From NCBI GenBank assembly GCA_036475815.1, contig JAZGAL010000175.1:4403-68402 (forward strand): a stretch of DNA of 64,000 nucleotides. Direction: 5' to 3'. Both the position numbers and the translations under genes were made by a program. The DNA comes from Gemmatimonadota bacterium (lineage in GTDB: Bacteria; Gemmatimonadota; Gemmatimonadetes; Palauibacterales; KS3-K002). The notes beneath the pieces are model-generated. The model saw only the letters and a program-made list of their open reading frames with translations, was not told the DNA's origin and did not search any database. Within the stretch, counting starts at the first letter, position 1; each line of letters begins with the position of its first letter. Shown here piece by piece: positions 22,536 through 26,494 of this stretch.

Positions 22536-23552
22536 TTACTTCCGTCCCTGCGATACCTTCTTAATAGCTCGGGCGAGGCGTCTCCGCTTCGGCTTGATGA
22601 GCTTCGCCTTCAGGTGGACGAGATCGATCCACATTCCCTCGGCGCTCAGGCGCTGCTCCCACCAACCCGGCAACTGCTCTGGTAGCTGAAAGTGCTCGTC
22701 GGCCAATCGCGCGAGCTGCTCCTGGCGCTGTGTCTTTCCCATGGGTCCGTACTCGCGGTTCAGGCGCTTCGCTTCGCCGAGCGCCCGCTCGCCGGTCGGG
22801 TCGAGGAACGCGGTCGGCGATTGCTTGCGATTGATCAGATAGTCTGCCGCGAAGTCGAACGTGTACCGCACCCAGGTTGCGATCTCACGGTCGTCCACGT
22901 CCCAGCGCGAGTAATCCAGCACGCGATCGAACATGGCTTGCCACGTACTGTCGTCGGCGAGCCGGATAATTCCTCTGAAGATGCGGCGGTTGGTCTGGAA
23001 GCTGAAAATCGCCCGGTCCAGAACTCTATCCATCAATTGGTCGTTATGGGCGTGGTCGACCTCCGTGATCAGGTGGTATGCGGCGCGCAGGTAGGCCTGA
23101 CCCAGATGGATGTCCATCCGATGCTCCCAGTAGGAGTGACCGATCATCTGCGTGTTGGCCGAGGTCACAAGCTTGCGCGGCAAGAAGTAGTTGTGGGCTA
23201 TGGTATCGCCGGCCAGGTGAGTCAGGTAGCCGAGGGCGCAGGCGCGTGTCGCGTCCGTGTCGGCAGCCTCGTAGAGCTCCTCTCCGACATGCCAGTGGTG
23301 GCAGTTGCGCCCGACCGGTGCGTATTTCTTCCCTACCGTGATGTCCGCGGCGATGCAGCCGTACAAGAAGTCGTAGGGGAAACGGCGAAGAATCCCGGCC
23401 ACGGCCGCCGGGAACAGGCCCAGCGCGGCGAGCAACTCGGTGCCCACGAGAATGTGCATGCCCGGACCCCAGGCCCAGGCCGGCTCCGGCAAAAGGAGAA
23501 TCGCGACCCCAGCGATTCCCAGGATCTCGAGCCAACGCATTCGCCGTGTCAC
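22536..23552 (-). CDS. zinc-dependent phospholipase C-like, metal-dependent hydrolase family protein (secreted)
   Basis: 338 aa. Signal peptide ending PAWA followed by WGPGMH. HLAGDTIAHNYF and other His/Asp clusters are present. 4-nt overlap with the upstream YtxH gene. Confidence 0.65.
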   Translation of the reverse strand: MTRRMRWLEILGIAGVAILLLPEPAWAWGPGMHILVGTELLAALGLFPAAVAGILRRFPYDFLYGCIAADITVGKKYAPVGRNCHHWHVGEELYEAADTDATRACALGYLTHLAGDTIAHNYFLPRKLVTSANTQMIGHSYWEHRMDIHLGQAYLRAAYHLITEVDHAHNDQLMDRVLDRAIFSFQTNRRIFRGIIRLADDSTWQAMFDRVLDYSRWDVDDREIATWVRYTFDFAADYLINRKQSPTAFLDPTGERALGEAKRLNREYGPMGKTQRQEQLARLADEHFQLPEQLPGWWEQRLSAEGMWIDLVHLKAKLIKPKRRRLARAIKKVSQGRK

Positions 23553-23914
23553 CGGCGGAGCCTCCCATACTCGCGTCGCAACGTCCTGCGGGCCTGTTCT
23601 AGCTGCTGGCGGGCCATATCACCGAACTCCTCCCGGGCCGCCTCCAGGCCGGCGCTGAGTTCCTCACGGAAATCGGCGGCAGCGTGACGGCTGGCTTTGC
23701 GGATCTCCTCGAGAGCTGCGGCGCCGGACCTTCGCACCCGACGGTAGCCTTCCCGAAGGCCGGCAGCTGCCCTCCTGCGCCGCCGCTCAGGAATCCAGGT
23801 GACGGCAAGCCCGATCCCGACAAGCGCGCCGATTGTGAACGCGAGGAGGAACTCGGTGCTGTGGCGCCGCTCGACATTCTCGGAGTCGTCCCCGCGTTCG
23901 GACTGCGCGACCAT
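23549..23914 (-). CDS. YtxH-like membrane-anchored stress protein
   Basis: 121 aa. A single TM helix (FLLAFTIGALVGIGLAVTWIP) is followed by a long charged helix. This matches the YtxH architecture. Confidence 0.6.
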   Translation of the reverse strand: MVAQSERGDDSENVERRHSTEFLLAFTIGALVGIGLAVTWIPERRRRRAAAGLREGYRRVRRSGAAALEEIRKASRHAAADFREELSAGLEAAREEFGDMARQQLEQARRTLRREYGRLRR

Positions 23915-23920
23915 AGCGTG

Positions 23921-24388
23921 TTACTCCTCCTCGGTCTCTTTGTCCGAGCGCTCGTCGTCCCGCCGCCGGCGAAGCAACTTCGCGCCCGCGCGGATGCCGC
24001 GGAGTGTCGAGGTGGCGGTCAGCACCGTGTCCTCCACTTCTCCCTGAACGACATCGATAAGCGCGCCGAGCTCCTGTACCCGCTCGTCCGCCGACTCCAG
24101 GGCTTCCGCGAGCCGGTCATTGGCGATCGATATCGTCTCGCTGACGCGCTCGACTTCCTTGCGGACCGACATCACGAGGAAGTTCAGGTTCTCGCCTATC
24201 GCGCGCGCGCGGTCCAGGACTGGCCTCGCATCGTGCCCGATCGTGGCCAGAGCGTCGTCCACGTTCTTGATGCTGCGCGTGATGCGGAAGATGGCCCGCG
24301 CCAGCAAGACCATGCCAATGCCCAACACCAGCATTGAGAGAATGCCGAGAGATTGAATCACTACGGTTAGCCACGCCACACCTTCCAC
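23921..24388 (-). CDS. DUF948-like membrane-anchored coiled-coil protein
   Basis: 155 aa. An N-terminal TM helix is followed by long amphipathic helices (ITRSIKNVDDALATIGHDARPVLDRA...). DUF948 and YtxH are commonly adjacent. Confidence 0.65.
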   Translation of the reverse strand: MEGVAWLTVVIQSLGILSMLVLGIGMVLLARAIFRITRSIKNVDDALATIGHDARPVLDRARAIGENLNFLVMSVRKEVERVSETISIANDRLAEALESADERVQELGALIDVVQGEVEDTVLTATSTLRGIRAGAKLLRRRRDDERSDKETEEE

Positions 24389-24401
24389 GCGACACCCCCT
24401 G

Positions 24402-25655
24402 TCATCTCATCTGTTTGCCAATGCGGCCCGAGTGCGCCATCTGCCGGTCAAGCTCGCCGGCACGCTCGAGTACGTTGCGAACCAGGAACGGCCCGATCAA
24501 GTCGCTGATGCCCACGGCGATCACCACCGTGGCGAAGAACATGTTGACCGCAGCTGTAAGTTCAGGCCCCGTAGGAACATAGATAAGGACGAACGAAATC
24601 GCCATGGCCAGCGAGAGGCCGCCCTGCGGCGTGAGGGCCAGGCCGAATCGGCGCGGTAGTTCGATGCCCCGTGGGCCGAAACGTTGGGCCACCACGCCGC
24701 CCGCCCACTTGGCCAGAATTCGGGCCGCAACGTACGCGGCGACCAGGGGGGCGATCCACCAGGACGAGAACTGCAGGAGCGCGCCGGCCACGACCAACAT
24801 CATGATGTAGATCGGTTTCTCCCAACCCGACAGGGCGGCGTAAACGCGGCGGCGCATCGGCGAAAGATTCCCGATGATCACACCTGCGATCATGCACACG
24901 AAGAGGGGTGAAAGCGAAAGATAGAATGAGGTGCCGGACGCGAAGAGCACCAGGCCGATCAAGAGCAGCGTGAGTTCTTGAGTCCGCGGGCGAATGCGTG
25001 TGAGTGAAAGGAACACGACGCCGAAGAAGATGCCCAGGAGAGCCGAGAAGGTGAACCACTCGAGAGGCGATAGCGCTATTCCGCCTCCGGGCAGCTCGGC
25101 GTGATGCGCCGCATGGGTAAGCCCCAGGACCACGATCCCAACGGCCGCGTCCAGGCTTGCTACATAGAAGAGCAGCCGGGTGATCCGGCCACGCGCCCTG
25201 TAGGTGTTCGAGATAAGCGCTATCGCCGCAGGCGTGGAGACGCTGGCGGTGGCGGCGGCCGCGAGCAGGATCGCATCGATTCTGAGCGAGAACCAGGAAT
25301 CGGCGATCAGGTAGGCGATGCCGAAGACGATGCAGAACGCCACCAGCGCCTGTAGCCAGGCGAGGGCCATGTAGCCCGCCGGGAACTGGCTTAGGTGGCC
25401 GCGGTCCAACTGCAGCCCGAACAGCACACCGATCCAGCCCAATCCGAGCGCCAGCAGCGGGGTGAGCAGGTTCACCGTCTCTCCGGACAGGATCTGCGTC
25501 GCGTGCGGCCCCAGCGCGAACCCGAGGAAGAGAAACGGTCCGCCGATGGCGATGAAGATCCGCGGTCCCAGTGGCACCTGCCGCTGAGAGAAGGTGAGTT
25601 CGGCCCCCAGCAGCCCGATCAGCACCAGAAGCAGAACGGTGATGATCGGGTTCAC
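24402..25655 (-). CDS. cation:proton antiporter (CPA2/Kef-like membrane domain only)
   Basis: 417 aa with ~12 predicted TM helices. The N-terminus LLLVLIGLLGAELTF is typical of the Na_H_Exchanger family. There is no C-terminal KTN/RCK domain. GTG start in a GTGA overlap with the upstream gene. Confidence 0.85.
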   Translation of the reverse strand: MNPIITVLLLVLIGLLGAELTFSQRQVPLGPRIFIAIGGPFLFLGFALGPHATQILSGETVNLLTPLLALGLGWIGVLFGLQLDRGHLSQFPAGYMALAWLQALVAFCIVFGIAYLIADSWFSLRIDAILLAAAATASVSTPAAIALISNTYRARGRITRLLFYVASLDAAVGIVVLGLTHAAHHAELPGGGIALSPLEWFTFSALLGIFFGVVFLSLTRIRPRTQELTLLLIGLVLFASGTSFYLSLSPLFVCMIAGVIIGNLSPMRRRVYAALSGWEKPIYIMMLVVAGALLQFSSWWIAPLVAAYVAARILAKWAGGVVAQRFGPRGIELPRRFGLALTPQGGLSLAMAISFVLIYVPTGPELTAAVNMFFATVVIAVGISDLIGPFLVRNVLERAGELDRQMAHSGRIGKQMR

Positions 25656-26008
25656 AATTCGGACTCTTCCCCGAGCTCCGGCGCGATGCCCTCTGCCCGG
25701 GAAACTGGGATGGTGAAAACGATGCCTGTGCCTGGCTCCTCCATGCTGCCGCAGACGTCCTGGATGACGGCGAAGGCCGCATCAGCCTTCTCGTCGTCAT
25801 CGATCACGCTGAGGATCGTGTAGTTCTGTGCCCGTGATCGCGAGAGCAGCGTTTGTATTCCCGCGAAGAGCGGGATGTCGTGGGTCAGGACGCGACCCAT
25901 CCCTTCGCTGTTGATGATCGTAGCACCGGTGATCCCCAACTCCAAAAATCCCGACAGGACATCGTCGAGCGCCTCTGCCTGGTTAATCACCGCCACCAGT
26001 AATTGCAT
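25652..26008 (-). CDS. PII-like small signal-transduction protein
   Basis: 118 aa. A beta-alpha-beta x2 pattern aligns by eye to GlnB-type PII. MQLLVAVINQAEALDDVLSGFLELGITGATIINSEGMGR is followed by a T-loop-like segment, then YTILSVIDDDEKADAAFAVIQD...GTGIVFTIPV. Confidence 0.6.
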   Translation of the reverse strand: MQLLVAVINQAEALDDVLSGFLELGITGATIINSEGMGRVLTHDIPLFAGIQTLLSRSRAQNYTILSVIDDDEKADAAFAVIQDVCGSMEEPGTGIVFTIPVSRAEGIAPELGEESEL

Positions 26009-26029
26009 AGAAGTGCCTCTTCGCTACAG

Positions 26030-26494
26030 CTAGGCGTGCTGTTCGTCGAACTGCCGGATCTTCTCGATCACCTCGTCGGCAGTGGCAGCGTCCAGCAATT
26101 GCTTTGGAACATCGGGCTGCCTCATCAGCCGGGCGATCCGGGCGAGCAGCTTGATGTGGGTGCTGCTGGCGGCAGGCGGCGAAAGGAGCAGGAACAACGT
26201 GTGAACGGGCTTCTCATCCAGTGACAAGAAGTCGACGCCCTTTCGTGACAGCGCTAGAACCATGATCGTCGAGCTCAGCTCCGGGTACACAGCGTGCGGT
26301 ACCGCGACTCCGCCGCCGATGCCGGTCGATTGTGCCGCCTCGCGCTCCAGTAGCACTTCGAAGACCGGCTGCTCATCCGGAACGAGCCCGTGTTCGGCCA
26401 GGCAATGCACCATCTCGCGCAGCGTGTTCTCGACACCCTGGGTCTGGATATCGACTATGACGAGCTCGGGCCGGAGATAGTGATAGAGTTTCAT
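26030..26494 (-). CDS. ptsN: PTS EIIA type-2 (EIIA-Ntr / PtsN-like) protein
   Basis: 154 aa. Active-site histidine context GIGGGVAVPHAV. The overall EIIA-2 layout is present (LLLSPPAASSTHIKLLARIARL). Confidence 0.85.
   Translation of the reverse strand: MKLYHYLRPELVIVDIQTQGVENTLREMVHCLAEHGLVPDEQPVFEVLLEREAAQSTGIGGGVAVPHAVYPELSSTIMVLALSRKGVDFLSLDEKPVHTLFLLLSPPAASSTHIKLLARIARLMRQPDVPKQLLDAATADEVIEKIRQFDEQHA

Follow-up and report, generated by a model that had tools for sequence, protein, structure and literature searches.

An EIIA and PII-like protein pair encoded beside cation/proton antiporters as a candidate regulator of antiport in Gemmatimonadota and other phyla

Our window is a stretch of 64,000 nucleotides (~64% GC) from an uncultured Gemmatimonadota bacterium (assembly GCA_036475815.1, contig JAZGAL010000175.1, positions 4,403 to 68,402), in which six minus-strand genes lie in a row at 22536–26494. 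The first three encode a stand-alone protein of the EIIA-2 family of the phosphotransferase system (PTS; 154 aa, 26030..26494), a divergent PII-like signal protein (118 aa, 25652..26008) and a membrane-only cation/proton antiporter-like protein of the cation:proton antiporter (CPA) superfamily (417 aa, 24402..25655). The nearest homologues of the latter two are all from Gemmatimonadota. With moderate confidence, we propose that the EIIA and PII-like proteins are a conserved two-protein regulator of cation/proton antiport, and that the first three genes form a regulator-plus-transporter unit. We favor a functional unit acting on antiport because the pair is found beside two unrelated antiporter families, because it also exists as a fusion protein, and because the phospho-acceptor histidine of EIIA is conserved.

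The evidence that carries this proposal comes from outside the phylum. In a metagenome sample, a scan with a 10-sequence alignment of distant PII-like members gave 80 loci outside Gemmatimonadota, which were mapped by open reading frames (ORFs) and hidden Markov models (HMMs) with Pfam spot checks, and for few of which the taxonomy is known. Like the Gemmatimonadota set described below, these are the best 80 matches of a pattern-based scan and not an unbiased census. A PTS_EIIA_2 gene adjoins the PII-like gene in at least 63 of the 80, with 13 contigs too short to judge (L121, L126 and L129 carry EIIA despite their initial mapping labels, owing to ORF overlap). Since genomes usually hold only a handful of EIIA-2 genes, this adjacency is not due to chance. 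Downstream, 38 loci have an Mrp/Mnh operon (gene order PII, EIIA, Mrp E-F-G-MbhD-B-C-D), and in L123 all seven subunits were verified by Pfam (MNHE, MrpF, MnhG, MbhD, MnhB, Oxidored_q2 and Proton_antipo_M). A CPA-type exchanger is present in 5 of the 80, and 43 of the ~54 loci long enough to judge have an antiporter operon after the EIIA-PII pair. When the loci are collapsed to 29 PII clusters (80% identity), EIIA remains in 21, Mrp in 10 and CPA in 3.

Among the CPA-type contexts seen outside the phylum, in individual distant members of the PII-like family (such as L085 and L088) as well as in the metagenome loci, the PII-like gene is followed by Na_H_Exchanger in L085, by a 398-aa CPA-like gene and then Na_H_Exchanger in L088, and, itself preceded by EIIA, by two CPA-like ORFs in L167. 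The order is CPA, EIIA, PII in L094 and PII, CPA, EIIA in L153, where EIIA comes after the exchanger. In P0312 (289 aa), the two regulators are joined in one polypeptide, with PTS_EIIA_2 (5.5e-21) at the N-terminus and the PII-like domain at the C-terminus. A second fusion, P0342 (L090 4610-5827), joins the PII-like domain to a C-terminal PilZ domain (6.4e-12) and lies ahead of a CPA-like gene and then a Na_H_Exchanger gene, which hints at a c-di-GMP input instead of EIIA. Two further PII-like genes have no adjacent EIIA gene: one (1080-1442 in L089) is beside a V-type ATPase operon (2575-6442; V_ATPase_I, ATP-synt_C, vATP-synt_E, vATP-synt_AC39), and the other (4995-5333 in L166) is next to an ATP-synt_I gene (5565-5975). 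Such neighbors fit a role in ion or energy homeostasis.

Searches of sequence collections also recover the PII-like family. A full HMMER search with its profile, run over 1.84 billion representatives, gave 1002 clusters at E<=1e-3, of which 450 reached E<=1e-10 (50% identity clusters); 3030 clusters at 90% identity (E<=1e-10) came from a word-indexed search. The named members come from Calditrichota, Aerophobetes, KSB1, CSSED10-310, Treponema, Tritonobacter and Bacillota, one of them from a cultured isolate (Treponema sp. J25), and are labelled 'hypothetical' or 'nitrogen regulatory protein P-II' throughout. A 422-aa protein from a Bacillota metagenome-assembled genome (MAG; P0274 / P0399) combines a PrmC release-factor methyltransferase with a C-terminal PII-like domain and may be a gene-call fusion of adjacent genes. 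In L097, the region downstream of EIIA-PII (1726-2082) encodes a 118-aa zinc-ribbon protein with a weak match to DUF2007 (in Pfam, a 'putative prokaryotic signal transducing protein').

Within Gemmatimonadota, a scan with the PII-like alignment in one genome per species also gave 80 loci, all anchored on the PII-like gene and mapped by tblastn and HMM. The EIIA labels were taken from tblastn/blastp and a clean EIIA alignment, and iterative HMM labels were dropped because they matched antisense ORFs of murA. The phylum-wide order is murA, (EIIA), PII, (CPA), then DUF948, (YtxH-like), a gene for a phospholipase C (PLC)-like protein, and gatB, with the variable genes in parentheses. EIIA, PII and CPA stand in this order and tightly spaced in ~53 of the 80 loci, and PII-CPA occurs without EIIA in 6 (e.g., L001 and L003). 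The linkage of the three genes that the sequence-only reading had pointed to thus holds in most of the loci and recurs in other phyla. The PII-like gene is the best conserved of the cluster, with 60–92% protein identity across the phylum vs ~40–48% for the antiporter in the same distant loci.

These Gemmatimonadota data alone could describe a stable synteny with modular EIIA and CPA genes. In fact, the block including murA, Cu-oxidase_4, rimP and gatB is syntenic in 80/80 loci, EIIA and the antiporter have each been lost from some lineages that retain the remaining genes, and outside the cluster the window codes for housekeeping functions (dxr, rseP, serS, uvrD, gatAB, murA, rimP-nusA-infB, pnp, mreB, PBP2, rodA, hisS, proS, guaA). 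The six genes might then be neighbors without functional coupling in a stable housekeeping block (gatCAB ... murA ... rimP-nusA-infB), their tight packing reflecting genome compaction. However, the EIIA-PII and PII-antiporter pairs recur in other phyla in different surroundings and beside a second, unrelated antiporter family, and an EIIA-PII fusion exists. We take the cross-phylum data as the decisive evidence. Synteny without coupling is very improbable as an account of the whole cluster; it is largely refuted for the first three genes and remains plausible only for the link of the DUF948, YtxH-like and PLC-like genes to the antiporter module. A role of the PII-like protein as a regulator of murA is rejected, as murA is absent from all of the non-Gemmatimonadota loci.

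Two features of this distribution stand apart. Loci of the Longimicrobiales type have two insertions between the antiporter (or PII) gene and DUF948, a CN_hydrolase gene and a gene for a conserved ~220-aa protein without a family match (L001 9582-10584, L003 9425-10938, L035 8794-10316). One MAG 'chromosome' (CP070722.1) carries two murA-EIIA-PII-CPA copies ~2.5 Mb apart (L014 and L025), one of them with a truncated antiporter and without the envelope genes, which could be a duplication or a mis-assembly.

The EIIA protein matches PTS_EIIA_2 (PF00359) over its full length (residues 6-147; 101.1 bits vs a cut-off of 27, 7e-29). The phospho-acceptor His67 and the second active-site histidine, His113, are invariant in 59/59 Gemmatimonadota orthologues, and in the PII-linked EIIAs of other phyla they are retained in 68/68 and 64/64 sequences, respectively. 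We take His67 to be the probable equivalent of PtsN His73, from an alignment to the E. coli PtsN sequence. Membership in the EIIA-2 family therefore stands, but the earlier label 'ptsN-like' is loose: the NCBIfam equivalog thresholds for PtsN are missed (TIGR01419, 91.8 bits vs 138.7; NF008145, 59.8 vs 221), and the NCBIfam fructose EIIA model scores about level with TIGR01419 (87.6 bits). The gene sits between murA and the PII-like gene and not in an rpoN-hpf-ptsN cluster, and the 64-kb window contains no rpoN gene.

The 118-aa protein matches P-II (PF00543; 37.3 bits vs 25, 3.5e-9), and its AlphaFold monomer (pLDDT 77) shows the double beta-alpha-beta arrangement, E-H-E-(loop)-E-H-E. The top 50 Foldseek matches are GlnB/GlnK-type PII proteins with probability 1.0, so that model and search agree, for the monomer, on the PII fold assigned from sequence. 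In an alignment to 2gw8, Tyr51 is replaced by Phe48 and Lys90 by Ile96, whereas the B-loop G-x-G and Arg39 are retained. The T-loop carries an invariant family motif, GMGR-x5-P-[IL]-F-A-G, and is conserved regardless of the type of neighboring gene. It probably forms trimers, has a long T-loop that is highly conserved, and is likely to bind a small-molecule effector.

Three known identities can be set aside. Canonical GlnB/GlnK is ruled out by the Tyr51/Lys90 replacements and by the NCBIfam P-II score (21.3 bits vs a cut-off of 202). SbtB is ruled out because the neighbor is a Na_H_Exchanger protein and the C-terminus (...GIAPELGEESEL) is without a Cys pair and so has no CGPxGC R-loop. PstA/DarA is ruled out because the Pfam scan gave no PF06153 match at E<=0.1. 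A match in the PDB to Lmo2692 is weak (E=1.5 over 32 residues).

The antiporter matches Na_H_Exchanger (PF00999; residues 42-380, 56.6 bits vs 26.2, 2.6e-15) and has no further domain. A Pfam search found no KTN/RCK domain in any of the six proteins, and the antiporter ends ~35 residues past its last transmembrane helix, which bears out the earlier view that it consists of the membrane domain only. The missing RCK is not unusual in itself, since RCK-less antiporters of the same fold, such as NapA and NhaP, are common. The label 'CPA2/Kef-type' stands in part: the protein belongs to the CPA superfamily, but CPA1 and CPA2 are not distinguishable on the evidence here, and the C-terminal KTN/RCK of Kef-type proteins is missing. 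The closest relatives outside the phylum are the PII-adjacent CPA-like genes, which have no Pfam match; identity is 30–33% to these and 23–24% to the canonical exchangers beside them. Because the similarity is highest to PII-adjacent genes, the antiporter belongs to a PII-associated CPA subfamily.

This divergence, together with a PDB sequence search that returned nothing at E<=0.01 with the antiporter profile and the closest relatives' lack of a Pfam match, leaves room for a CPA-fold transporter or channel for another substrate, regulated by PII in the way that the bicarbonate transporter SbtA is by SbtB. As judged from sequence, the ND/DD pair common in such exchangers also appears to be replaced: the single invariant carboxylate, Asp168, sits mid-membrane in an 'S-L-D' motif and is preceded by Leu167 instead of Asn/Asp. 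However, the Na_H_Exchanger score is above cut-off, and the structural model (pLDDT 82.7, pTM 0.84) matches Na+/H+ antiporters over its whole length; Foldseek returned PaNhaP, NapA, MjNhaP1, SOS1 and NHA2, with probability 1.0 for PaNhaP, NapA, MjNhaP1 and NHA2, and template-modelling scores of ~0.6–0.7. The hallmarks of the fold can also be read in the protein, namely two broken helices (breaks at 137-141 and 341-343, with residues S139-T140-P141 and P-Q343-G344-G345), the mid-helix Asp168, and R311 and K315, which are invariant among orthologues. In addition, the sister systems use bona fide Mrp Na+/H+ antiporters. We therefore regard another substrate as highly unlikely and continue to treat the protein as a cation/proton antiporter.

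Several observations weigh against a regulator that acts on antiport, and they begin with loci where the antiporter is missing. In Gemmatimonadota, EIIA-PII occurs without CPA in 5 of the 80 loci; by Pfam, L035 has EIIA, PII, CN_hydrolase, DUF948, a partial YtxH match and the PLC-like gene, and no antiporter. In 11–13 Gemmatimonadaceae loci, the only genes after PII are DUF948, within 5–150 nt, and the PLC-like gene (L075, L091). Hence a local antiporter is not an obligate partner and, as all four presence-absence combinations of EIIA and antiporter occur around PII, the PII-like protein is not dedicated to the antiporter alone. In other phyla, ~7 EIIA-PII loci have only unrelated genes nearby, such as NadE or SpoU (L109, L118), and in 4 loci a gene for a Ser/Thr kinase that carries a PEGA domain at its C-terminus comes after the pair (L102 2413-3879, L147 704-2158, L157 5365-6858 and L096). 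A T-loop that is kept whatever the neighbor is a better fit to a shared partner or ligand than to direct contact with two transporters that are unrelated. Nor is it obvious how a PII protein, a trimer, could form a symmetric plug of the AmtB or SbtA kind on a CPA exchanger, typically a dimer, and with Lys90 and Tyr51 replaced the effector is not predictable. Finally, the 64-kb window has no gene for EI or HPr/NPr, and a six-frame search of it for the HPr active-site motif found no HPr.

The loci without an antiporter, those with the PEGA kinase, the lone PII genes of Gemmatimonadaceae and the constancy of the T-loop could all be read in another way, in which EIIA and the PII-like protein are a general metabolic or energy-state signaling pair that acts mainly on soluble enzymes or kinases, and the antiporter genes are co-regulated neighbors that are not directly gated. 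Canonical PII and PtsN each have many soluble targets. This reading is set against the antiporter operons that follow the pair in most of the judgeable loci, and against the position of the pair within the operon, where it precedes the transporter genes or lies among them and the ORFs overlap or nearly do so, which is the pattern of GlnK-AmtB and SbtB-SbtA. We consider a general signaling role without gating unlikely, and retain the proposal that the pair regulates cation/proton antiport.

Beyond the observed domain identities, folds, conserved histidines, cross-phylum adjacency and fusions, we infer a mechanism from gene context and by analogy with PtsN-YcgO, GlnK-AmtB and SbtB-SbtA. EIIA would serve as a PTS phospho-carrier, and the phosphorylation state of His67 would report the phosphoenolpyruvate/pyruvate or carbon/nitrogen status of the cell. 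EIIA and the PII-like protein may act jointly as a complex, which would bind the cytoplasmic face of the antiporter and switch cation/proton exchange on or off post-translationally. Such gating would integrate the PTS phosphorylation state with a small-molecule signal, thereby coupling pH and Na+/K+ homeostasis to metabolic state. In other phyla, the same module would serve the Mrp multisubunit antiporters. The complex itself, the effector, and where and in which direction regulation acts all belong to this model.

A partial precedent that the sequence-only reading had missed is PtsN-YcgO. In E. coli, PtsN in its unphosphorylated form binds the K+/H+ antiporter YcgO (CvrA) and inhibits it (PMC11808508), and the K+-related targets listed in a 2026 review of PTS-Ntr are only TrkA, KdpD and YcgO (PMC13104625). 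Our system is alike in having an EIIA-2 protein with a phosphorylatable histidine; in E. coli, binding that depends on phospho-state controls cation/proton antiport (PMC11808508; PMC13104625). However, YcgO, which is of the CPA1 type, offers a cytoplasmic RCK/CorC tail as the docking site, whereas the antiporter here is without a cytoplasmic domain. E. coli ptsN is also not beside ycgO and is without a PII-like partner, and the EIIA here falls under the PtsN equivalog threshold.

GlnK plugs AmtB and SbtB plugs SbtA via their T-loops, and both transporters are trimers that match the PII trimer. As in these systems, a small PII-fold protein with a conserved long T-loop is encoded directly beside a transporter gene, but here the transporter is CPA or Mrp and there is an additional, obligate-looking EIIA partner. 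The PII-like protein also lacks the Tyr51 (uridylylation) and Lys90 of GlnK and the CGPxGC loop of SbtB. Soluble ligand-sensing proteins encoded beside CPA2 exchangers control them in KhtT-KhtU (c-di-AMP), KefF/KefG-KefC/KefB and RCK/KTN rings; unlike these regulators, which have RCK/KTN or flavodoxin-like folds, those described here have EIIA and PII folds. PotN is a PII-like protein in the potABCD operon of Firmicutes, and PII-NG is found beside metal efflux pumps. These are likewise non-canonical PII-like proteins in transporter operons, but with other transporters and no EIIA partner.

The system described here extends two known kinds, the PII-like transporter regulators and EIIA-Ntr control of K+ transport, and the PII-like/EIIA/antiporter combination appears to be new. 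Full-text literature searches found no description of the module, in line with the earlier impression that the arrangement is undescribed, although subscription-only papers were outside these searches and a prior mention is possible. A preprint on PII 'valve plugs' mentions neither antiporter nor EIIA (10.1101/2023.08.10.552651).

More tentatively, the EIIA and PII-like pair, sometimes fused, could possibly be a widespread and previously unrecognized cytoplasmic control unit for structurally unrelated ion-translocating machines, including CPA exchangers, Mrp complexes and perhaps rotary ATPases, which would physically link PTS and PII and target them to pH and Na+/K+ homeostasis. On this tentative reading, the unit would be present in many mostly uncultured phyla (Gemmatimonadota, Spirochaetota, and lineages of Aerophobetes and Tritonobacter), and other members of the family occur in Calditrichota, KSB1 and CSSED10-310 lineages. 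Among the systems by which bacteria sense carbon, nitrogen and energy, PII proteins and the regulatory PTS are the two that are known best, and they have so far been studied separately. The pair and its natural fusion beside antiporter operons suggest one joint device for ion and pH homeostasis. The post-translational regulation of Mrp and of many CPA antiporters is poorly understood, and the module is a concrete candidate. If the model is correct, the annotation of thousands of proteins that at present carry the label 'nitrogen regulatory protein P-II' or 'hypothetical' would change.

The last three genes of the cluster encode a DUF948-like membrane-anchored coiled-coil protein (155 aa, 23921..24388), a small protein whose relatives have weak YtxH-like matches (121 aa, 23549..23914) and a hydrolase of the Zn-dependent PLC / P1-nuclease superfamily (338 aa, 22536..23552). 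Of the family labels first given to the cluster, PTS_EIIA_2, P-II, Na_H_Exchanger and Zn_dep_PLPC (PF00882; 69.8 bits vs 26.8, 3.6e-19) are confirmed, whereas DUF948 is under threshold and YtxH is undetected in the window protein. For DUF948 (PF06103), the window protein scores 30.5 bits vs a cut-off of 37.2 (4.3e-7), and the L075 orthologue is just above it at 37.6. The 121-aa protein has no match to YtxH (PF12732) at E<=0.1 and only weak, sub-threshold matches to unrelated families, including an apolipoprotein-like one (0.076). Its L035 orthologue matches PF12732 over just 21 residues (21.2 bits vs 37.5); as orthologues give only such faint or partial matches, the YtxH label is weak. The PLC-like hydrolase probably carries a signal peptide, cleaved between ...LLLPEPAWA and WGPGMH, which would leave a mature N-terminal Trp of the zinc ligand type.

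These three genes, first read as linked to the module, are not part of what is conserved. They accompany the PII-like gene only in Gemmatimonadota, where DUF948 and the PLC-like gene adjoin PII even without EIIA and the antiporter and the PLC-like gene keeps its position in nearly all loci; none of the three was found in the non-Gemmatimonadota loci mapped. They are a separate envelope unit and a fixed neighbor of the PII-like gene only in this phylum, which is probably co-transcribed with the antiporter module in the source genome. In one Gemmatimonadota MAG, the antiporter ORF is continuous with the DUF948 gene (L012 8354-10078; P0136, 574 aa), which may reflect a genuine fusion, the loss of a stop codon or faulty assembly.

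The order of the six genes and their spacings (21, -4, 13, 6 and -4 nt, computed from the ORF coordinates) are as first noted. The cluster is flanked by gatB (plus strand, convergent, ending at 22513) and murA (plus strand, divergent, starting at 26594). With murA it shares a 99-nt divergent intergenic region (26495..26593), in which the TTGACA hexamer that had been taken for a promoter candidate is present on the minus strand (26553-26548). However, it has no acceptable -10 element, and a sigma-70 promoter scan of 22300-26800 gave 0 sites. Rfam (gathering thresholds) and tRNA scans of the window gave no match, and six terminator-like hairpins in the region all lie within coding sequence and were disregarded. 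Elsewhere in the window, two ORFs have no Pfam match at 1e-5 (5299-6387, minus strand, 362 aa; 58230-59405, plus strand, 391 aa). A 217-aa ORF antisense to the DUF948-like and YtxH-like genes (23684-24337, plus strand), with a third-position GC content (GC3) of 0.70, is probably a spurious high-GC shadow ORF.

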